35,389 nucleotides of DNA from a virus (taxonomy: Duplodnaviria > Heunggongvirae > Uroviricota > Caudoviricetes), in the IMG/VR virus record IMGVR_UViG_2563367158_000001; one strand, written 5' to 3'. Positions 5,552-18,082 of this stretch are shown here, one piece after another. The notes under the pieces are model-generated. The model did no database searches. It had not been told where the DNA came from and saw only the letters and a list, made by a program, of their open reading frames with translations. Position numbers and translations under genes: made by a program. The first letter of the stretch is position 1, and every line of letters starts with the position of its first letter.

Positions 5552-6226
5552 TTAGGCTTTGATTTTGTATCTTCTTGGTTTTCCTGAGAAAATCACTGTA
5601 CCAATTATAGAGCAATTACCGTTGATCTTAATGTAAGGCTCAGGCCAGTTTGGGTTTAACGCTTTGAGATAACGCTGTGTCCCATCTTCTATCAACCTTT
5701 TGAAGGTGGTTTCACCTGTATCGTGCATCAATGCAATAACGTCGTCACCGTGGCAGGCAGGTACTTCAGGATCGACAAAAATCATGTCTCCCGGGCGGTA
5801 CTCATCAATCATTGAATCACCTATCACCCGCAAGATATAAGTCATTTCCCCACAGGGGACAGGGCAGGGATACGTTTCTGCTGTGCTCAAATCAACCTCA
5901 GAATATCCAACTTCTTTCCATGCTCCGGCCTGTACCCATGATATGACAGGGACTAATGTGATTTGTTTATTAGTGATTGAAACATCAGGTTTTTTTGTGA
6001 TGTTCGTTGTCTGGTGTTCTTGATCGAGCCATCCGACAGGCAGGTCGAAACATTTTTCGATGTGTCGTGCCATGCTGTCACCGATATTTTTAGTAGCACC
6101 ATCTCCCATAAACCTGCTGGTCTGGGTTGGCTCGCGATCAATCATAGTGGCAAAGGAAGAATTCCCGCCAACACCATCTCTCAGTTTTCTGGCGTTAGAC
6201 CGCCGGATGTCATGGATTGTTTTCAT
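5552..6226 (-). CDS. cI: CI-type prophage repressor (HTH plus S24 LexA-like peptidase domain)
   Basis: 224-aa ORF; C-terminal GDSM...DGD...K region typical of self-cleaving S24 repressors; divergent to cro. Confidence 0.9.
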   Translation of the reverse strand: MKTIHDIRRSNARKLRDGVGGNSSFATMIDREPTQTSRFMGDGATKNIGDSMARHIEKCFDLPVGWLDQEHQTTNITKKPDVSITNKQITLVPVISWVQAGAWKEVGYSEVDLSTAETYPCPVPCGEMTYILRVIGDSMIDEYRPGDMIFVDPEVPACHGDDVIALMHDTGETTFKRLIEDGTQRYLKALNPNWPEPYIKINGNCSIIGTVIFSGKPRRYKIKA

Positions 6227-10276: not shown

Positions 10277-11074
10277 ATGAATAATCTGATGGTCATTGAT
10301 GGTATTGAAGTTCGTCGTGATGCTTATGGGCGTTACAGCCTGAACGATCTGCACAGGGCTGCCGGTTCTCTGGATAAGCATAAGCCTGCATTCTGGCTCC
10401 GCAATGAGCAAACTGAGCGTTTAATAAGCGAGTTGCAGATTTGCAACTCGGTCAATATAGAGCCAGTTAACGTTATTCGTGGCGGAAATAACCAGGGGAC
10501 GTATGTCTGCAAAGAACTGGTGTATGCCTATGCAATGTGGATCAGCCCGTCATTCCATCTGAAGGTGATCCGTACTTTCGACATGGTAACCAGCGCACCG
10601 GAAAAATTATCCGGACAGGCTGCTGACAAGATGCAGGCTGGTGTGATTCTGCTGGACTTTATGCGCCGGGAGTTAAATCTGTCTAACTCTTCAGTGCTTG
10701 GAGCCTGTCAGAAACTTCAGGAGGCTGTTGGCTTACCGAATCTGGCACCGCGCTATGCCATTGATGCTCCTGCTGACGCGCCTGATGGCTCAAGCCGCCC
10801 CACGCTGTCACTGAGTGCACTGCTGAAGCAGTATGGTATCCGCCTTACGGCTAATCAGGCATATCACCAGATGGCGAAGCTGGGGATCGTCGAACAGCGC
10901 GAACGATACAGCCGTACAGCGATTAACAACATCAAAAAATTCTGGTCGCTGACAGCGAAAGGCTGCATGTTCGGCAAGAATATCACCAGTCCCGCAAATC
11001 CGCGTGAGACGCAGCCGCATTTCTTCGAATCCCGATTCCCTGAGCTGTTAAAGCTGCTCGATACCGTTCATTGA
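10277..11074 (+). CDS. KilA-N domain protein (anti-repressor-like)
   Basis: 265-aa ORF; N-terminal KilA-N-type region (IDGIEVRRDAYGRYSLNDLHRAAG...KPAFWLRNEQTERLI). Confidence 0.75.
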   Translation: MNNLMVIDGIEVRRDAYGRYSLNDLHRAAGSLDKHKPAFWLRNEQTERLISELQICNSVNIEPVNVIRGGNNQGTYVCKELVYAYAMWISPSFHLKVIRTFDMVTSAPEKLSGQAADKMQAGVILLDFMRRELNLSNSSVLGACQKLQEAVGLPNLAPRYAIDAPADAPDGSSRPTLSLSALLKQYGIRLTANQAYHQMAKLGIVEQRERYSRTAINNIKKFWSLTAKGCMFGKNITSPANPRETQPHFFESRFPELLKLLDTVH

Positions 11075-11075
11075 G

Positions 11076-12071
11076 GTGACCGTGAGAGCACTACTGACCC
11101 CTGAAATTGCCCCGCGTATGGGGATCGTATTGTTCAGACCAGGTTCAGAGCTGATGCCCCTGTTTATGCAGGGGCGTGTCCTGCTGGAGCCTGAGCCGGA
11201 ACGTTATTCATCTTTCGCCAGTGGTGCTGTTCCGGCGGCATCACAACCGCTGGCGGATGATCCTGACGTTCGGGCCGTGTTCCGCAATGAGGCAGTGATC
11301 CGTCGTGCTGGTGGCGTGGAATGTCTTGAAAGCTGGTTACTTCGTGAAAAAGGCTGCCAGTGGCCTCATTCCGACTGGCACAGCGAGAATATGACAACAA
11401 TGCGACACGCGCCGGGCGCAATCCGTCTGTGCTGGCACTGCGATAACCAGCTGCGCGATCAGTTCACGGAACGGCTGGAATCAATGGCAACGGATAACTG
11501 TGCCCGCTGGGTGTTGTCTGTTGTGCGTCGGGATCTCGGTTTTGATGATAGTCACGTTGTGACAATGCCGGAACTGTGCTGGTGGCTGATTCGTAATGAC
11601 CTGGCGGATGCCTTACCGGAAAGTGCAGCCCGTAAGGCACTGAGATTACCGAAGCCTGTTGTGCCGTCTGTCACCCGGGAAAGTGACCTTGTGCCTTCGG
11701 TTCCTGCCACCAGCATCATCCAGGATAAGGTGAAAAAGGTGCTGGCGCTGAAAGTGGATCCGGAGTCGCCGGAGTCTTTTATGTTACGCCCAAAACGTCG
11801 CCGCTGGGTTAATGAAAAGTACACACGCTGGGTTAAGACACAGCCGTGTGCATGTTGTGGAAAGCCTGCTGATGATCCCCACCACCTGATAGGCCACGGT
11901 CAGGGGGGAATGGGTACAAAAGCGCATGACCTCTTTGTGTTGCCTTTGTGCAGAAAGCATCACGACGAGCTGCATGCGGATACCGTGGCATTTGAAGAGA
12001 AGTATGGTTCCCAGCTGGAGCTGATATTTCGTTTTATCGATCGTGCGCTGGCAATAGGCGTACTGGCGTAA
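11076..12071 (+). CDS. DUF968-family protein (YdfU-like, HNH-like Cys/His motif)
   Basis: 331-aa ORF with GTG start; C-terminal CACCGKPADDPHHLIGHGQGGMGTKAHDLFVLPLCRKHHDELH. Confidence 0.6.
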   Translation: MTVRALLTPEIAPRMGIVLFRPGSELMPLFMQGRVLLEPEPERYSSFASGAVPAASQPLADDPDVRAVFRNEAVIRRAGGVECLESWLLREKGCQWPHSDWHSENMTTMRHAPGAIRLCWHCDNQLRDQFTERLESMATDNCARWVLSVVRRDLGFDDSHVVTMPELCWWLIRNDLADALPESAARKALRLPKPVVPSVTRESDLVPSVPATSIIQDKVKKVLALKVDPESPESFMLRPKRRRWVNEKYTRWVKTQPCACCGKPADDPHHLIGHGQGGMGTKAHDLFVLPLCRKHHDELHADTVAFEEKYGSQLELIFRFIDRALAIGVLA

Positions 12072-12084
12072 GTGGAGAACGAGC

Positions 12085-12837
12085 ATGAACCTTGAAGCCT
12101 TACCGAAATATTACTCCCCGAAATCTCCAAAACTGAGCGATGACGCACCGGCGACAGGCTCTGGTGGTTTAACGATTACGGATGTGATGGCTGCGCAGGG
12201 GATGGTGCAGTCGAAAGCACCGCTTGGGTTTGCCTTATTCCTGGCAAAAGTTGGTGTTCAGGATCCTCAGTTTGCGATTGAAGGTCTGCTCAATTACGCG
12301 ATGGCACTGGATAACCCGACATTGAATAAATTGAGTGAAGAAACCCGGCTACAGATCATTCCTTACCTTGTGAATTTTGCCTTTGCTGATTATTCCAGGT
12401 CTGCGGCAAGTAAGGCTCGCTGTGAGCATTGTGCTGGTACTGGATTTCATAATGTATTGCGCGAGGTGGTGAAACACTCCAGAAGCGGGGAATCTGTTAT
12501 CAAGGAAGAGTGGGTGAAGGAACTATGTCAGCATTGTCATGGTAAGGGAGAAGTCAGCACAGCGTGCAGAGGGTGTAAGGGTAAAGGTATTGTCCTGGAT
12601 GAAAAAAGGACCCGGCTTCATGGCACGCCTGTTTATAAGATTTGTGGGCGTTGCAATGGAAACCGGTTTAGCCGTTTACCAACTACACTGGCACGACGTC
12701 ATGTCCAGAAGCTGGTTCCAGACCTGACTGATTATCAGTGGTACAAAGGATATGCAGACGTAATTGATAAACTAGTAACAAAGTGCTGGCAGGAAGAAGC
12801 ATATGCTGAAACGCAATTGAGAAAGGTGACGAGATAA
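12085..12837 (+). CDS. late-gene antitermination protein Q
   Basis: 250-aa ORF with CxxC zinc-binding motifs (CEHCAGTG, CQHCHGKG, CRGCKGKG, CGRCNGN); directly upstream of a terminator and the lysis cassette. Confidence 0.7.
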   Translation: MNLEALPKYYSPKSPKLSDDAPATGSGGLTITDVMAAQGMVQSKAPLGFALFLAKVGVQDPQFAIEGLLNYAMALDNPTLNKLSEETRLQIIPYLVNFAFADYSRSAASKARCEHCAGTGFHNVLREVVKHSRSGESVIKEEWVKELCQHCHGKGEVSTACRGCKGKGIVLDEKRTRLHGTPVYKICGRCNGNRFSRLPTTLARRHVQKLVPDLTDYQWYKGYADVIDKLVTKCWQEEAYAETQLRKVTR

Positions 12838-12944
12838 GTGATTTTCGCCGAAGATGGCGACATGAAGCTTGCATTTTTCAAAAAATATGGATAAGATTTT
12901 CTCAACGATGGGCTTTGTATGTCTGCCGTTGATAATTTTCACGA

Positions 12945-12970
12945 ACCCGCTGTTGAGCGGGTTTTTATTT
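12945..12970 (+). terminator. tR'-like intrinsic terminator downstream of Q
   Basis: ACCCGC-TGTTGA-GCGGGT hairpin followed by TTTTTATTT. Confidence 0.6.
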
Positions 12971-13022
12971 ACTTGTACTGAAACACATTATATAACCTCA
13001 TATCAGTTAAAAAGGAGGTTGT

Positions 13023-13358
13023 ATGATTAATGCCGTTGAGTACAGATTACCGTTAGGAAATATCTCTCCAGAGAATCTTGACGCGTTGTCAGAGCTTATC
13101 GTTAAGCATTCCGATAAATTTAATAACTATGTACTTAGTTCTATTTCTGATGATGATATTCGATATTCTTACGATTACTACAATTTTGAAATCACAGAGA
13201 TAGATGAATATGGGTTTCACTTTATAGCACCATATAGCTATTATGAAGGATGCGTTGACAATAACTTCTCAGGAGAGGTTGAAGGTTATGCAGAATACGA
13301 AATCATTGATAATGAATTAGTCTTCTCTCTTGAGGAACTACCTTGGGATGTAAAATAA
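13023..13358 (+). CDS. hypothetical small acidic protein (AT-rich insertion between Q and holin)
   Basis: 111-aa ORF, very Asp/Glu/Tyr-rich; strong RBS AAGGAGGTTGTATG; about 33% GC by eye; followed by its own terminator. Confidence 0.6.
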   Translation: MINAVEYRLPLGNISPENLDALSELIVKHSDKFNNYVLSSISDDDIRYSYDYYNFEITEIDEYGFHFIAPYSYYEGCVDNNFSGEVEGYAEYEIIDNELVFSLEELPWDVK

Positions 13359-13366
13359 ATATCAAT

Positions 13367-13400
13367 AATAAAGGCCGTAACGAACGGCCTTTATTATTAT
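13367..13400 (+). terminator. rho-independent terminator
   Basis: Perfect 11-bp stem AATAAAGGCCG / CGGCCTTTATT with a 7-nt loop, followed by ATTAT. Confidence 0.65.
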
Positions 13401-13509
13401 AAAATCATCAATGCCTGATGAATTAGAATGTAATTTTCGAATTAATAATAAATCAACATATCATTTCACGCTCCGATTTTCTGTCGGAGGCGAAACTGCG
13501 GCTATTCAT

Positions 13510-13815
13510 ATGCACGAAAAAGAGAATCTTGCTGGAGCGTTCTGGCTCGTTTTGCTGATCATCGCAGGTTGGGGCGGTCTGGTCCGCTACCTGATAGATG
13601 TGAAGCAGAGTAAAGCAACGTGGAGTTGGATAAATGCTCTGGCTCAGATAGTGGTATCAGGATTCACCGGTGTTATTGGTGGCCTGATCAGCATCGAAAG
13701 TGGATTCAGTATTTACATGATTCTCGCGACAGCGGGGATTAGTGGTGCGATGGGTTCGGTTGCACTGACGTACTTCTGGGAACGACTGACAGGGGTGAAA
13801 AATGCAAAATCTTAA
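13510..13815 (+). CDS. holin (three predicted TM helices); the ORF also has an upstream in-frame ATG at 13411
   Basis: Three hydrophobic segments (AFWLVLLIIAGWGGLV, WINALAQIVVSGFTGVIGGLI, IYMILATAGISGAMGSVAL); stop overlaps the endolysin start; start choice uncertain (13411 or 13510). Confidence 0.6.
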   Translation: MHEKENLAGAFWLVLLIIAGWGGLVRYLIDVKQSKATWSWINALAQIVVSGFTGVIGGLISIESGFSIYMILATAGISGAMGSVALTYFWERLTGVKNAKS

Positions 13816-14278
13816 TCCTCAGCGTAAAGCTTTCCTCGATATGGTGGCATGGTCAGAAGGAACGGATAACGGGCGACAACCGACACGTAACCACGGTTAT
13901 GATATTATTGTCGGTGGTGAACTCTTCACTGATTACTCCGATCACCCTCGCAAACTTGTCACGCTAAACCCCAAACTCAAATCAACAGCTGCAGGCCGTT
14001 ATCAACTTCTTTCACGCTGGTGGGATGCTTACCGCAAGCAGCTTGGGCTGAAAGACTTCTCTCCAAAAAGCCAGGATGCTGTGGCATTGCAGCAGATTAA
14101 AGAGCGTGGCGCTTTACCGATGATTGATCGCGGCGATATTCGTCAGGCTATCGATCGTTGCAGCAATATCTGGGCTTCACTGCCGGGCGCTGGTTACGGT
14201 CAGTATGAACATAAAATCGGTGACCTGATTGCCCGATTCAAAGAGGCTGGCGGGGTGGTAAATGAAGTTGAGCTATAA
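13802..14278 (+). CDS. endolysin, lambda R-type lytic transglycosylase
   Basis: 158-aa ORF, near-collinear with lambda R as I recall it (NxQRKAFLDM.AWSEGTDNGRQ.TRNHGYD.IVGGELFTDYSDHPRKLVTLNPKLKST.AGRYQLL). Confidence 0.92.
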   Translation: MQNLNPQRKAFLDMVAWSEGTDNGRQPTRNHGYDIIVGGELFTDYSDHPRKLVTLNPKLKSTAAGRYQLLSRWWDAYRKQLGLKDFSPKSQDAVALQQIKERGALPMIDRGDIRQAIDRCSNIWASLPGAGYGQYEHKIGDLIARFKEAGGVVNEVEL

Positions 14279-14723
14279 GCTGGTTATCGCTGCATTCTTC
14301 GTTACTGTCATTGGTTCTTTTATCTGTTCAGCAAATTATTACCACAGCAAAGCCATCGAATACAAAAAGCAGCGTGATGAGAATGCTATGGCATTAGATT
14401 CGGCTATGGCGACTATCTCTGATATGCAGAAGCGTCAACGTGACGTAGCAGAACTTGACGCCAGATACACAAAGGAGCTTGCTGATGCTAACGCGACTAT
14501 CGAAAGTCTCCGTGCTGATGTTTCTTCTGGGCGTAAGCGCCTGCAAGTCGCCGCCACCTGTGCAAAATCAACGACCAGAGCCAGCGGCATGGGCGATGGA
14601 GAAAGCCCAGGACTTACAGCAGATGCTGAACTCAATTATTACCGTCTCCGAAGTGGAATCGACAGAATAACCGCACAGGTTAACTACCTGCAGGAGTACA
14701 TCAGGACGCAATGCCTTCGATGA
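14262..14723 (+). CDS. i-spanin Rz
   Basis: 153-aa ORF; N-terminal TM helix then coiled-coil resembling lambda Rz (YKAQRD-like, RQRDVAELDARYTKELADA). Confidence 0.85.
   Translation: MKLSYKLVIAAFFVTVIGSFICSANYYHSKAIEYKKQRDENAMALDSAMATISDMQKRQRDVAELDARYTKELADANATIESLRADVSSGRKRLQVAATCAKSTTRASGMGDGESPGLTADAELNYYRLRSGIDRITAQVNYLQEYIRTQCLR
14485..14670 (+). CDS. o-spanin Rz1 (embedded in Rz, +1 frame)
   Basis: 61-aa product from the internal Met of ORF 14455..14670: signal peptide with a Cys then a Pro-rich segment (CKSPPPVQNQRPEPAAW), typical of Rz1 lipoproteins. Confidence 0.7.
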   Translation: MLTRLSKVSVLMFLLGVSACKSPPPVQNQRPEPAAWAMEKAQDLQQMLNSIITVSEVESTE

Positions 14724-14990
14724 TAGCGATAATTTTACTCATCATCCTTCACATCAGGCCCTGTAGACAGAGTGGTGATTACTTCTGGAGTGGATTCAGA
14801 TTAAACATCTCATTGCTAATGTTTGAGGTTAAGCATCTGGCGCGCGGTAAGTGGTTGCGTTGAAATAAGAGCCAGTCCATTACAAATTTCATCAAGCGTT
14901 ATTGGTAAGGGTGATAATTATGAGATACCTCTTCACTAAGAGTAATCTTAAGGGTAATGTGTAACCTCACTTTTTAATACGGAGGTTGTA

Positions 14991-15215
14991 ATGTTAGAGA
15001 ATTATTTCCCTTCAGGAATAGGTGCTCAGCCTGTAACTCAAGCTCAAAAACAGAGGGTTATAGCTGTTCAAGCTGCCCTTGAATTAGTTAAGGCCTCACT
15101 TTCTTCTGCAGGTGGTCAGGCTACAAGTGCAAAATTTGAACAGGAATTAAAAGCAGCTATTGGCTTAATTGAACCATTAGCCGATGCCATTCAGAAAGCA
15201 ATCAGCAAAGAATAA
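14991..15215 (+). CDS. hypothetical small helical protein (AT-rich insertion after lysis genes)
   Basis: 74-aa ORF; strong RBS GGAGGTTGTAATG nearly identical to that of 13023..13358; Ala/Gln/Lys-rich; strong terminator about 100 nt downstream. Confidence 0.55.
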   Translation: MLENYFPSGIGAQPVTQAQKQRVIAVQAALELVKASLSSAGGQATSAKFEQELKAAIGLIEPLADAIQKAISKE

Positions 15216-15321
15216 ATAAACCACCTGCATTTTGTTTTATTTCCCAACTAACGGGTGTAATAATCTTAATGTTTCCCGTGGATAGATAAGACAATAAGTA
15301 TTCACCTTCAAGATATAAACG

Positions 15322-15347
15322 AGCCTCGCTAATGCGAGGCTTTTTTA
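15322..15347 (+). terminator. rho-independent terminator
   Basis: AGCCTCGC-TAAT-GCGAGGCT hairpin followed by TTTTT. Confidence 0.7.
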
Positions 15348-15381
15348 CGCATTGTAAGCGTGCACCAAAGAGGGGATATAA

Positions 15382-15732
15382 ATGCCACCACGAACCCCAA
15401 AAGCCTGCCGTTTTCGCGGTTGCCGCAATACCACGACTGATCCGTCAGGCTATTGCGAAAGCCACAAAAGCGAGGGCTGGAAGCAATACAAGCCAGGACA
15501 ATCCCGTCATCAGCGCGGTTATGGTTCGAAGTGGGACAGTATCCGCGCGGGTGTCCTGAAGCGTGACAAAGGCCTGTGTCAGTTATGTCTGCGTGCTGGT
15601 GTGGTGCGTGAGGCGAAAACCGTTGACCACATCATCCCTAAAGCGCATGGCGGCACTGATGCCGACTGTAATCTGCAGAGTCTGTGCTGGCCGTGTCATA
15701 AGGCGAAGACGGCCCGTGAACGACTTAAGTGA
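15382..15732 (+). CDS. HNH endonuclease (terminase-associated)
   Basis: 116-aa ORF with Cys clusters and DHIIPKAHGG ... CWPCH HNH motif; directly upstream of the terminase genes. Confidence 0.85.
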   Translation: MPPRTPKACRFRGCRNTTTDPSGYCESHKSEGWKQYKPGQSRHQRGYGSKWDSIRAGVLKRDKGLCQLCLRAGVVREAKTVDHIIPKAHGGTDADCNLQSLCWPCHKAKTARERLK

Positions 15733-15758
15733 TAATAATTCTCAACTGTCTGAGGGGA

Positions 15759-15818
15759 GGGGCGGGTCAAATCTCTGTGACCTGACGTCTTCCGGACTGC
15801 CCGCCCCATCGTTTTTTT
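15759..15818 (+). other. GC-rich structured element between HNH and terS (candidate terminator or cos-proximal site)
   Basis: GGGGCGGG (15759-15766) pairs with CCCGCCCC (15800-15807) around nested small hairpins, followed by TTTTTTT. Confidence 0.35.
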
Positions 15819-15857
15819 ATACCCGCGAAAAATGAAATTTAACCAGGAGTGCCGCAT

Positions 15858-16352
15858 ATGGCTGGAACGGCGGGGCGTTCCGGGCGTCGCCCCAAGCCAA
15901 CGGCGCGCAAGGCGCTGGCCGGAAACCCCGGCAAGCGAGCCCTGAACAAAGATGAACCTGTTTTTACGCCCATCAAAGGTGTTGAGCCACCGGAGTGGTT
16001 CGCAGAAGAAGATCTCCCTCTCGCCACGATCATGTGGCAACTGACAACCAAAGAACTCTGCGGTCAGGGCCTGCTGTGCGTGACTGACCTGGCGGTACTT
16101 GAGCGGTGGTGCGTGGCCTATGAGTTCTGGCGACGTGCCGTGAAAAATATTGCCAGCCAGGGCAACACCATCACCGGTGCAATGGGCGGCAGGGTCAAAA
16201 ACCCGGAGCTGACCGCCAAGAAAGAACAGGAGTCCGAGATGAGCAGCACGGGGGCAATGCTCGGACTCGACCCCAGCAGCCGCCAGCGTCTGATAGGCCT
16301 GGCGGGGCAGAAGAAAGCCACTAACCCGTTTCTGAAAATCATCGAATCATGA
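15858..16352 (+). CDS. terminase small subunit (P27 family)
   Basis: N-terminus [14 protein letters not shown] typical of the P27-family small terminase; AGGAG 8 nt upstream of the ATG at 15858; stop overlaps the large-subunit start. Confidence 0.85.
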
Positions 16353-18082
16353 GCCGGAAATCTTACCCCAACGTAAATGCTGCCAATCAGTATGCCCGTG
16401 ATGTCGTGCGGGGAAAGATTGTGGCCTGCCAGTTTGTGATTCAGGCCTGCCAGCGCCATCTTGATGACCTGATGGCGGAAAAAAGTAAGTCGTTTCGTTA
16501 CCGCTTCGACAAGGACCTGGCTGAACGGGCCGCCAAATTTATTCAGCTGTTGCCGCACACCAAGGGTGAGTGGGCATTTAAGAGGATGCCCATCACGCTG
16601 GAGCCGTGGCAGCTCTTTGTGATCTGCTGCGCGTTTGGCTGGGTCAATAAAGGCTCCCGGCTGCGCCGCTTCCGTGAGGTGTATACCGAAATCCCCCGTA
16701 AGAACGGCAAATCGGCAATCTCTGCCGGTGTCGCCCTGTATTGTTTTGCCTGTGATAACGAGTTTGGCGCGGAAGTGTATTCCGGTGCCACGACAGAGAA
16801 ACAGGCGTGGGAAGTCTTTCGCCCGGCGCGACTGATGTGTAAACGCACACCCATGCTGACGGAAGCGTTCGGGATTGAGGTTAACGCCTCAAACATGAAC
16901 CGTCCGGAGGATGGCGCGCGGTTTGAACCGCTGATCGGTAACCCCGGTGATGGATCATCACCCCACTGTGCGGTGGTGGATGAATATCACGAGCACGCCA
17001 CCGATGCGCTTTACACCACGATGCTTACCGGGATGGGGGCGCGACGTCAGCCACTGATGTGGGCCATTACTACTGCCGGGTACAACATTGAGGGGCCGTG
17101 CTACGACAAACGGCGGGAAGTTATCGAGATGCTCAACGGTTCGGTACCCAACGATGAACTGTTCGGGATCATCTATACCGTTGACGAAGGTGACGACTGG
17201 ACCAACCCACAGGTGCTGGAAAAAGCCAACCCGAATATCGGGGTGTCGGTTTACCGTGAGTTTTTGTTAAGTCAGCAACAGCGTGCGAAAAATAACGCCC
17301 GTCTGGCAAACGTCTTTAAAACAAAACACCTCAATATCTGGGTGTCGGCGCGTTCGGCGTATTTCAACCTGGTGAGCTGGCAGAGCTGCGAGGATAAATC
17401 ACTGACTCTTGAGCAATTCGAGGGGCAGCCGTGCATTCTGGCCTTTGACCTGGCGCGTAAACTGGATATGAACAGCATGGCGCGACTTTATACCCGCGAG
17501 ATTGACGGTAAAACGCATTACTACAGTGTGGCCCCGCGTTTCTGGGTACCGTATGACACGGTGTACAGCGTCGAGAAAAATGAAGATCGCCGGACAGCCG
17601 AACGCTTTCAGAAATGGGTGGAAATGGGCGTCCTGACCGTTACCGATGGTGCAGAGGTGGATTATCGCTACATCCTCGAAGAGGCCAAAGCGGCGAACAA
17701 AATCAGCCCGGTCAGCGAGTCACCCATCGACCCCTTCGGGGCGACCGGGCTGTCACATGACCTTGCTGATGAAGACCTGAATCCCGTCACTATCTTCCAG
17801 AACTTCACCAATATGTCCGATCCGATGAAAGAGCTGGAAGCAGCGATTGAATCGGGACGTTTTCATCATGACGGCAATCCCATCATGACCTGGTGTATCG
17901 GCAACGTGGTCGGCAAAAACATGCCGGGTAACGATGATGTGGTGAAACCCGTCAAAGAGCAGGCGGAAAACAAAATTGACGGTGCAGTTGCGCTGATTAT
18001 GGCGGTTGGCAGAGCCATGCTGTACGAGAAAGAAGACACGCTGTCTGATCACATTGAGTCCTACGGGATCCGCTCGCTTTAA
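16349..18082 (+). CDS. terminase large subunit
   Basis: 577-aa ORF with Walker A-like IPRKNGKS and the conserved ATPase/nuclease architecture of HK97-type large terminases. Confidence 0.92.

Follow-up and report, generated by a model that had tools for sequence, protein, structure and literature searches.

A small cargo gene behind the lysis cassette of an Escherichia coli prophage and the leader hairpin that it has in common with unrelated genes

We will describe a small gene, orf74, and the leader which precedes it in a stretch of 35,389 nucleotides (nt) of virus DNA (Caudoviricetes; IMG/VR record IMGVR_UViG_2563367158_000001). The whole stretch will be called the window. It is 100% identical to a RefSeq prophage of Escherichia coli, and the host element is a dusA-integrated prophage with an HK97-type head. 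The gene codes for 74 amino acids (aa) and is found between the lysis genes and the genes for an HNH endonuclease and the terminase. On the other side of the lysis genes, between the Q antiterminator with its tR'-like terminator and the holin, there is another cargo gene, orf13023, which codes for 111 aa. RefSeq annotates both of them as hypothetical proteins. The coordinates of the features are collected in Table 1. The best explanation that we can offer, to which we give slightly less than even confidence, is that orf74 is a moron-type cargo gene under a portable leader, in which a hairpin masks the Shine-Dalgarno sequence (SD) and the AUG.

orf74 is a genuine gene of the accessory, moron type. 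The open reading frame (ORF) of 74 aa had been noticed in a first-pass annotation, made from the sequence alone; it is present in the ORF list and in RefSeq, as WP_000892817.1, where the coding sequence was called by the Prokaryotic Genome Annotation Pipeline (PGAP). The post-lysis slot in which it lies, from Rz/orf50 to the HNH start codon, is a variable cargo slot. To the left, the DNA of Rz and orf50 is 91–93% identical to phages HK620, CUS-3, epsilon34, Sf101 and the mEp phages, a homology that ends at about 14887. To the right, the sequence of strain UTI89 diverges right up to the HNH start codon. These two limits place the orf74 cassette at about 14888–15381. Strains 1428, 104 and UTI89 have a different content both in this slot and in the region upstream of the holin: a methyltransferase and a lambda-type holin lie upstream in strain 1428, a different ORF of 85 aa follows Q in strain 104, and the slot of UTI89 (L084, 5831–6700) contains an unrelated ORF of 74 aa, WP_001220676.1, with no Pfam or PHROG match. 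The latter is followed in UTI89 by about 650 bp of DNA which is very rich in AT and in which no gene is annotated. The first-pass annotation had spoken of a second late-region insertion at the position where lambda carries bor. Both statements agree with our findings: related prophages fill the stretch from Rz/orf50 to the HNH start codon with other cargo, and the map slot, between Rz and the HNH/terminase genes, is the same one, which we take to be the bor position.

Prophage copies of the orf74 family are found in the slot that orf74 has in the window. In Serratia phage OS31 the homologue is found between Rz and HNH/terminase; this was the sole match of orf74 among cultured phages (tblastn). 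In Klebsiella prophages it lies between the lysis genes and HNH/terminase, and several IMG/VR contigs likewise have it in the slot. One genome per species was scanned, which gave 101 relatives of orf74; 80 of these loci were fetched and many of them are outside prophages. Serratia species have the homologue between a GFA-family gene and either a pentapeptide-repeat (Qnr-like) or a DUF1835/DUF3658 gene. In Serratia marcescens and its relatives (L003, 10001–10210) it adjoins the GFA-family gene and is about 150 nt upstream of the Qnr-like gene. In Scandinavium and its relatives it adjoins a GNAT acetyltransferase, in Kluyvera a DUF1398 gene and a carbonic anhydrase. A CSD gene is also found among the non-phage genes in conserved synteny around the chromosomal homologues. 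Four loci come from records titled Pseudomonas lundensis I31 (L008), Vagococcus sp. WN89Y (L020), Martelella alba BGMRC 2031 (L043) and Chryseobacterium sp. 18061 (L059). These records are probably contaminated or mislabelled: the family is otherwise found here in Enterobacterales alone, and L008 has Serratia core synteny.

The protein matches phrog_5901 over its full length (E 8.1e-29, residues 1–74 on profile positions 1–70 of 70). Searches of Pfam, NCBIfam and PADLOC with orf74 gave no match, a Pfam scan of 79 family members gave sub-threshold noise alone (the best was SesA at E 0.006), and a search of the PDB sequences with the family profile gave nothing below E 0.2. Its relatives in the databases are all named 'hypothetical protein', and no paper was found in the literature searched for the accessions and PHROG identifiers. 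The homologues form 13 clusters in a word-indexed search and 130 representatives at 50% identity in an exhaustive profile search. All of them are single-domain proteins of about 60–80 aa. The residues M1, Y5, R22, AVQAALE, K34, S36 and LADAIQ.A are invariant in the alignments: MLxxY is N-terminal, R..AVQAALE..K.S is in helix 1 and LADAIQ.A in helix 2. When orf74 is compared with a variant which is 89% identical, the ratio of nonsynonymous to synonymous substitution rates (dN/dS) is 0.15, and 23 of the 34 differences are at third codon positions.

A small helical protein had been foreseen in the first-pass annotation, and AlphaFold2, run with 79 homologues, predicts a two-helix hairpin with helices 17–39 and 46–73 and an extended N-terminal segment (predicted local distance difference test, pLDDT, 86.7). 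Fold searches found generic helical hairpins alone. The protein has no hydrophobic segment (grand average of hydropathy 0.07) and its N-terminus, MLENYFPSGIG, has no signal peptide or Cys. We read the product as a soluble two-helix hairpin of about 70 aa. We infer that it binds a conserved cellular partner or ligand and does not act in lysis or packaging, because several genera inherit a member of this family vertically, as a chromosomal gene that stands alone. Two candidates were rejected. A lysis accessory (spanin or antiholin) does not fit with the absence of a membrane anchor or lipobox and with a family in which most members are in chromosomal loci without lysis genes. The lambda Bor / Iss lipoprotein does not fit either: there is no Bor-family match and no lipobox signal peptide.

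Another proposal for the protein is that it is an anti-defence protein, either an oligomeric sponge or an inhibitor, in a late-operon hotspot. This would be compatible with the leader described below, and we consider it quite unlikely. The post-lysis slot may be an anti-defence hotspot, as the slot neighbour in Klebsiella, adjacent or within 1.5 kb, is an Acb2/Tad1-hairpin protein (PF24729, E 1e-16), and orf74 is a candidate for a small helical oligomer, with its invariant Tyr5, Arg22 and Lys34. The PF24729 gene is immediately upstream of the orf74 homologue in L149 (5648–5884) and about 1.3 kb upstream in L146 (4392–4685), with two ORFs in between. However, orf74 has no detectable homology with Acb2/Tad1: hhalign gives a probability of 0.3 against the neighbour, and neither orf74 nor the 79 family members match PF24729. 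The lack of a PADLOC match points in the same direction, although that library contains defence proteins, not anti-defence proteins. A conserved chromosomal gene, as we find in Serratia, Kluyvera and Scandinavium, would also be unusual for an anti-defence protein.

We come now to the leaders. The first-pass annotation had noticed that the ribosome-binding site strings of orf74 and orf13023 are nearly identical, and this is the case: GGAGGTTGTAATG is found at 14981–14993 (ATG at 14991) and AAGGAGGTTGTATG at 13012–13025 (ATG at 13023). By itself this is weak evidence, as the 10-mer GGAGGTTGTA with at most one mismatch is found twice when 1.59 occurrences are expected. The shared context goes beyond a generic Shine-Dalgarno sequence in that an upstream anti-SD arm is common to both leaders. 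Both genes have TAACCTCA 11–13 nt upstream of GGAGGTTGT, and the pattern TAACCTCA-N8–16-GGAGGTTGT is found twice in the window and in none of 100 shuffles. The arm, UAACCUC, is complementary to GAGGUUG, which is the SD with its 3' flank. When the RNA is folded, SD and AUG are paired in both leaders, in the minimum free energy structure as well as in the centroid structure. In orf13023 a 13-bp stem is formed by arms 12987–12999 and 13015–13027 around the loop 13000–13014; its free energy (dG) is -13.7, with z -4.3, and none of 200 shuffles is as stable. In orf74 there is an inner helix of 7 bp, 14962–14968 (UAACCUC) with 14982–14988 (GAGGUUG), and an outer helix of 6 bp, 14955–14960 with 14991–14996, which includes the AUG. 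The mean probability of being unpaired from SD to AUG, calculated in the read-through context, is 0.11 for orf13023 and 0.22 for orf74, versus 0.37–0.74 for seven neighbouring genes. We attribute the match between the two ribosome-binding sites to the same portable leader hairpin, carried by both genes. An Rfam scan of 12000–16000 found nothing near gathering scores. Its best match, Leu_leader (27 bits against a threshold of 50), was rejected as a chance match which overlaps the terminator.

Both genes lie in AT-rich patches around the lysis cassette and each is followed by a strong terminator (Table 1), as had also been noticed. The GC fraction of the patches is 0.31–0.42 versus 0.46–0.60 nearby: it is 0.31–0.37 over about 12975–13500 for orf13023 and 0.35–0.42 over about 14850–15375 for orf74, against 0.46–0.56 in the lysis genes and 0.5–0.6 in the terminase genes. 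Between orf74 and its terminator there is an AT-rich untranslated stretch of 105 nt. The terminator has a GC stem of 9 bp, GAGCCUCGC/GCGAGGCU(U), and its T6 run starts inside the 3' arm.

Two scans of IMG/VR, one with the hairpin pattern and the other with a pattern from the upstream part only, show that the leader is found in other prophages. It has about 60 nt. Its 5' half is formed by TTCACT, a 17-nt spacer with the inverted repeat TAAGA-N4-TCTTA, TAATGT and one nt; its 3' half by the 5' arm, a variable loop of 8–15 nt, GGAGGTTGT, one nt and ATG. Besides members of the orf74 family, it precedes at least seven unrelated ORF families: one of about 100 aa (phrog_25591-like), one of 59 aa, one of 176 aa (phrog_14564), a different ORF of 59 aa, one of 138 aa (phrog_14356), one of 97 aa (phrog_4827) and an ORF of 89 aa. 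Wherever the contig is long enough, these ORFs are on the 3' side of Rz and on the 5' side of HNH/terminase. About 17 of the 47 hairpin-pattern matches are due to chance; they have no start codon and no upstream similarity. The same architecture is present in leaders which were retrieved through the protein and not through a DNA pattern, in Erwinia (L019) and Klebsiella (L146). The leader of orf13023 has the hairpin part alone in common with the others; its closest relative is the leader of the L125 type, and TATAACCTCATAT is common to the two. Several loci have a real Rz stop (...TGCCTGTGATAATG) immediately before the leader, and in the window GGTGATAAT, at 14910–14918, resembles an Rz stop region and may be a relic from a donor phage. 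Among cultured phages the leader gave chance matches in Staphylococcus phages alone. In E. coli beyond the orf74 lineage there was no match at E up to 0.01, in a search with little power (a 66-nt query against 28 Gb).

A second type of leader is found about 100 nt upstream of some orf74 homologues (L002, L020, L023–L034, L040, L044 and L149), on the 3' side of the Rz stop. It has TTGAAw, about 19 nt, TTATATT, a covarying hairpin and an SD, and it looks like a promoter with a 5'-terminal stem-loop. The arms of its hairpin appear as CCCACC/GGTGGG, ACTCG/CGAGT, CTGCC/GGTAG, CCTGTC/GACAGG and CCACAG/CTGTGG.

Both leaders in the window also have promoter-like elements. In orf74 we find TTCACT (14932–14937, -35-like), 17 nt and TAATGT (14955–14960, -10-like), with a predicted start at about 14967, in the 5' arm. 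TTCACT-N17-TAnnGT is retained in L019 and L146, whose leaders were found independently of the DNA pattern. The spacer of the orf74 element contains the inverted repeat TAAGA-GTAA-TCTTA (14937–14950). This repeat has A-U to G-C double changes in four sequences, and reads AGGA-TTAA-TCCT, changed on both sides, in L098 and L118 among others; a dimeric regulator might bind it as a DNA operator, or it may form a small hairpin in the RNA. In orf13023 the element is TTTACT (12968–12973), 17 nt and TATAAC (12991–12996), directly 3' of the tR' terminator, at the site where Stx phages carry stx. Its -10-like hexamer overlaps the 5' arm of the hairpin, and the predicted start, about 13000–13004, is in the hairpin loop. 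TTTACA-N17-TATAAC is kept in Salmonella (L163) and Citrobacter (L167), around 5930–6000, with spacers that diverge. This element was not called by a consensus scan; the sixth position of its -10 is C.

These features suggest a mechanism with two transcripts, in which the promoter and the direction of the regulation are what we infer. In the long late transcript, antiterminated by Q, the hairpin would mask the ribosome-binding site, and the cargo would not be made in bulk during lytic growth. The weak promoter-like element just upstream, whose -10 lies beside or overlaps the 5' arm, would give short transcripts which start inside or after that arm and are not masked, and from them the cargo would be translated in the lysogen. 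We put this mechanism forward tentatively, as a possibility that falls well short of even. In its widest form, which we judge somewhat unlikely, the leader would be a portable expression module with a weak promoter, a possible operator-like repeat and an SD/AUG mask, reused by at least eight unrelated cargo families in two slots, after Q/tR' and after Rz, across prophages of Enterobacterales, on in the lysogen and muted in the late transcript; orf74 would then be a new small helical family that has moved between phages and chromosomes, perhaps with an anti-defence or regulatory role.

To see whether the hairpin is selected, base pairs were counted in 24 distinct leaders after alignment. Of the cells of the SD helix, 86.5% pair, and four of its eight pairs have changes on both sides. 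The arms change in a compensatory way, as in UAGCCUCC/GGAGGCUU, UAAUCUCC/GGAGAUUA, GACUUCC/GGAGGUC and GCCUCU/AGAGGC. Overall pairing is 83%, versus 36–58% when the partners are slid. This supports, modestly, a helix that is kept by compensatory change across the homologues. In the orf74 family, the SD core is masked by an upstream arm in 15 of the 20 distinct leaders near phage genes and in 15 of the 65 without them (Fisher p 8e-5), an enrichment that supports selection in the phage context.

Several points weigh against the masking leader and its promoter. The contrast between prophages and chromosomes is not phylogenetically independent. The covariation score, 0.187 versus 0.135 in shuffles, was not reached in any of 500 shuffles or in any slid register, but it comes from a few events among related sequences, which can beat every shuffle. 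The alignments were partly chosen by patterns that fix some of the columns, and rows L030 and L043 were added after their pairing had been seen. The hairpin of orf74 is weak by itself (dG -8.9, z -1.1), its copy in the window scored an accessibility of 0.39 in a different sequence context, and the leader of L141 has lost the hairpin. As for the promoter, a scan for consensus sigma-70 promoters called none in 14700–15000, where the orf74 element matches 7 of 12 positions. The -35-like TTTAC of orf13023 and the T-rich tail of tR' have sequence in common, as do the -10-like hexamers and the hairpin arms, so that the conservation of the hexamers could stem from the terminator tail or from the arms. 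Finally, in transcripts cut at the proposed start the accessibility rises only to about 0.33–0.36.

It is also conceivable that the leader is an inherited junction with a strong ribosome-binding site, a recombination boundary of mosaic phages in which the complementarity of the arms has no regulatory role. The apparent relic of an Rz stop in the leader is typical of module boundaries, and such a junction would agree with the stability of the orf74 hairpin, which is no higher than in shuffled sequences, and with the lack of pairing in L141. However, in several lineages double changes compensate each other and pairing is kept, and the arms stay complementary while the loop varies in sequence and in length. 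The hairpin of orf13023 is clearly not random, and masking is enriched in the prophage copies of one and the same protein family. We regard a neutral junction as unlikely. If the hairpin were neutral, what is left of our finding would be a hypothetical moron of the ordinary kind, in a variable slot already known.

The stem could also be opened by translational coupling: a ribosome ending on a short upstream ORF, at the TAA/TAG of the 5' arm, would melt it, and the SD of the cargo would become accessible. The mini-ORF of the window, at 14920–14964, has a plausible ribosome-binding site (GGTGAT, 4 nt, ATG) and its stop is at 14962–14964; six other loci have a related ORF of 16–17 codons (MMNHKFCFTRINPNGSV, then a stop). 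TAA or TAG opens the 5' arm in 17 of 19 leaders of the first type, and the change of A to G from TAA to TAG covaries with its pairing partner. The start codon, however, is not conserved: only eight of the 19 leaders have an in-frame ATG. It is absent from L019, L136, L139, L146, L138, L144 and L141; the sole in-frame start in any of these is a GTG right before the stop. The peptide is no more conserved than the conservation of the nucleotides explains, and orf13023 has no such ORF, as its frame is open for 12 codons with no start. Coupling is in our view an improbable explanation of the leader.

Stems rich in AU which contain SD and AUG, with G-U pairs and an internal loop, are a known architecture of RNA thermometers. 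The paired SD and AUG of our leaders are found in a stem of this kind, and translation might take place only at the body temperature of a warm-blooded host. The folding calculations argue against it. From 25 to 42 C the predicted probability of being unpaired goes from 0.18 to 0.24 in orf74 and from 0.10 to 0.11 in orf13023, whose stem, at -13.7 kcal/mol, is too stable. A thermometer is in our opinion most improbable.

The presence of the same hairpin on both sides of the lysis cassette raises the question of how orf13023 and orf74 are related. orf13023 has an isoelectric point of 4.05 (WP_000606308.1); it matches phrog_13663 over its full length (E 9e-54) and belongs to no Pfam family. A search of cultured phages with orf13023 found no match. 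Its homologues in Salmonella (72%), Citrobacter (69%) and L135 (35%) are always found after Q and before the holin. An acidic cargo family of about 100 aa (L125, L134 and L144) was considered as a relative and was rejected. Among 5,426 complete E. coli genomes, DNA of orf13023 is found in 131 and DNA of orf74 in 38.

The first-pass annotation had suggested a common origin or co-regulation of the two genes. A homologous leader hairpin is indeed present in both and fits a common regulatory logic; related proteins and co-inheritance were not found. The idea that the genes on the two sides of the lysis cassette form a pair with linked functions, joint regulation and a common origin has in its favour, besides the hairpin, that both genes are present in 23 E. 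coli genomes when about 0.9 would be expected if they were independent (131 x 38 / 5426). Furthermore both slots are filled alike in a divergent prophage, L135/L162: Q/tR' is followed by an orf13023 homologue (35%) and Rz by an orf74 homologue (36%). In this prophage (IMGVR_UViG_3300013814_000005) the homologues are at 1453–1791 and 4034–4243 of L135 as oriented, and Q, the GH19 lysin and the terminase differ. However, the 23 genomes share a block, 12980–15350, which is at least 99.7% identical, and they represent one prophage lineage; 12 of them are serial isolates. Another 15 genomes have orf74 alone and 108 have orf13023 alone, so that the two genes do not travel together as a pair. Examples are strains 1428 and 104 and UTI89, of which the last has orf13023. 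In the 80 genome loci of the orf74 family, no homologue of orf13023 lies within 10 kb. In the Salmonella and Citrobacter prophages that were examined and have a homologue of orf13023, the 6 kb fetched downstream contain no relative of orf74; their lysis genes are followed by other cargo. The two proteins are unrelated, and the leader is also common to at least seven other families. Thus the co-occurrence of the two genes is recurrent but not required, they are not an obligate pair, and a functional link between them is very unlikely.

Table 1. Positions in the window of orf74, orf13023, their leaders and the surrounding features
Feature	Position	Strand	Remarks
KilA-N domain protein	10277–11074	+	
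DUF968 protein	11076–12071	+	
Q antiterminator	12085–12837	+	Pfam Antiterm match 3.8e-54
tR'-like intrinsic terminator, just 3' of Q	12943–12964	+	Terminator scan; kept in Salmonella and Citrobacter loci
Hairpin of orf13023	12987–13027	+	RNA fold
orf13023 (111 aa)	13023–13358	+	
Strong terminator after orf13023, bidirectional-looking	13363–13399	.	16-bp stem, dG -20.2, z -6.5
LydA-type holin	13510–13815	+	
GH24 lysozyme	13802–14278	+	
Rz, with Rz1 embedded	14262–14723	+	
orf50 (50 aa), phrog_11822	14711–14863	+	Overlaps last 13 nt of Rz; P22-like/HK620-type Rz region
Left junction of orf74 cassette	14888–14931	+	Homology breakpoint
Mini-ORF MRYLFTKSNLKGNV, then stop	14920–14964	+	TAA stop is the first 3 nt of the hairpin 5' arm; reality uncertain
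Upstream leader part (TTCACT, inverted repeat, TAATGT)	14932–14960	+	Leader alignments
SD/AUG-masking hairpin of orf74	14955–14996	+	RNA fold
orf74 (74 aa), phrog_5901	14991–15215	+	
Intrinsic terminator closing orf74 cassette	15321–15347	+	dG -18.2, z -5.0
HNH endonuclease	15382–15732	+	Right edge of variable slot
P27-type small terminase	15849–16352	+	
Large terminase	16349–18082	+	

Two further observations concern the prophage. The frame of the holin is open from an ATG at 13411 (134 aa), while PGAP places the start at 13510 (101 aa). The N-terminal extension of 33 codons lies inside the AT-rich patch on the 3' side of the terminator and is probably not translated. In strain CX04 (NZ_CP081716.1, L152) a circular record of 37,667 bp, 'plasmid unnamed3', is the same prophage, present besides the chromosomal copy. 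It carries the integrase and a dusA fragment, and many of its coding sequences are flagged as frameshifted. It looks like an assembled excised form, which would mean that the dusA-integrated prophage still excises.

For cargo genes in a late operon, it is poorly understood how wasteful or harmful expression in lytic growth is avoided while expression in the lysogen is kept. If our reading is true, a masking leader common to unrelated cargo would be a simple answer. It would also be a sequence tag for the detection of late-region cargo, which includes candidate anti-defence and host-modulating genes. The orf74 family is in turn a clean example of a small protein which is both inherited in the chromosome and carried as phage cargo. 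Its PHROG, phrog_5901, and that of orf13023, phrog_13663, are matched in full length and are not annotated with a function; that library is made of phage proteins only and does not cover the chromosomal members of the orf74 family. With Acb2/Tad1 (PF24729) orf74 has in common the small helical hairpin and the slot, with no similarity of sequence or profile.

We have used the word moron in the sense of Hendrix and Juhala, as described for the P22-like 'ant moron' (PMC2629481). Like lambdoid morons, orf74 has a fixed place in the late operon, where prophages that are otherwise syntenic may have it, lack it or carry something else, and its cassette is AT-rich, has its own terminator and no apparent role in lysis or morphogenesis. 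For a promoter of its own, active in the prophage, there is a candidate, the weak promoter-like match. The cassette differs from morons in general by a conserved leader that is common to many other cargo genes. No description of a shared leader for morons was found in the literature searched, and we know of none of this kind.

The classical occupant of the post-Rz position is bor of lambda, which is transcribed in the direction opposite to the late genes. Like bor, orf74 lies between Rz and the packaging genes. Unlike Bor, to which it is not related, it lacks a lipoprotein signal, matches nothing in Pfam and is encoded on the strand of the late genes. Both bor and lom are expressed from the lambda prophage (PMC7067206).

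The closest parallel for the leader is found in the T4 genes e, soc, 49 and I-TevI, in which long transcripts have a masked initiation region and transcripts from nearer promoters lack the 5' arm (PMC3014915). As in these genes, the leader sequesters SD and/or AUG in a local helix within a longer transcription unit, and a promoter-like element lies next to the 5' strand of that helix or extends into it. The timing that we propose would be the reverse of that in T4: here the long transcript would be late and the short one would belong to the lysogen, from a host-type promoter candidate which is weak. Furthermore, our leader is one homologous portable element reused by unrelated genes, whereas in T4 the structures have evolved separately in each gene. 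The more interesting result is the masking leader, a variation on a regulatory device already known; orf74 itself is an ordinary hypothetical moron whose product belongs to a new small family.

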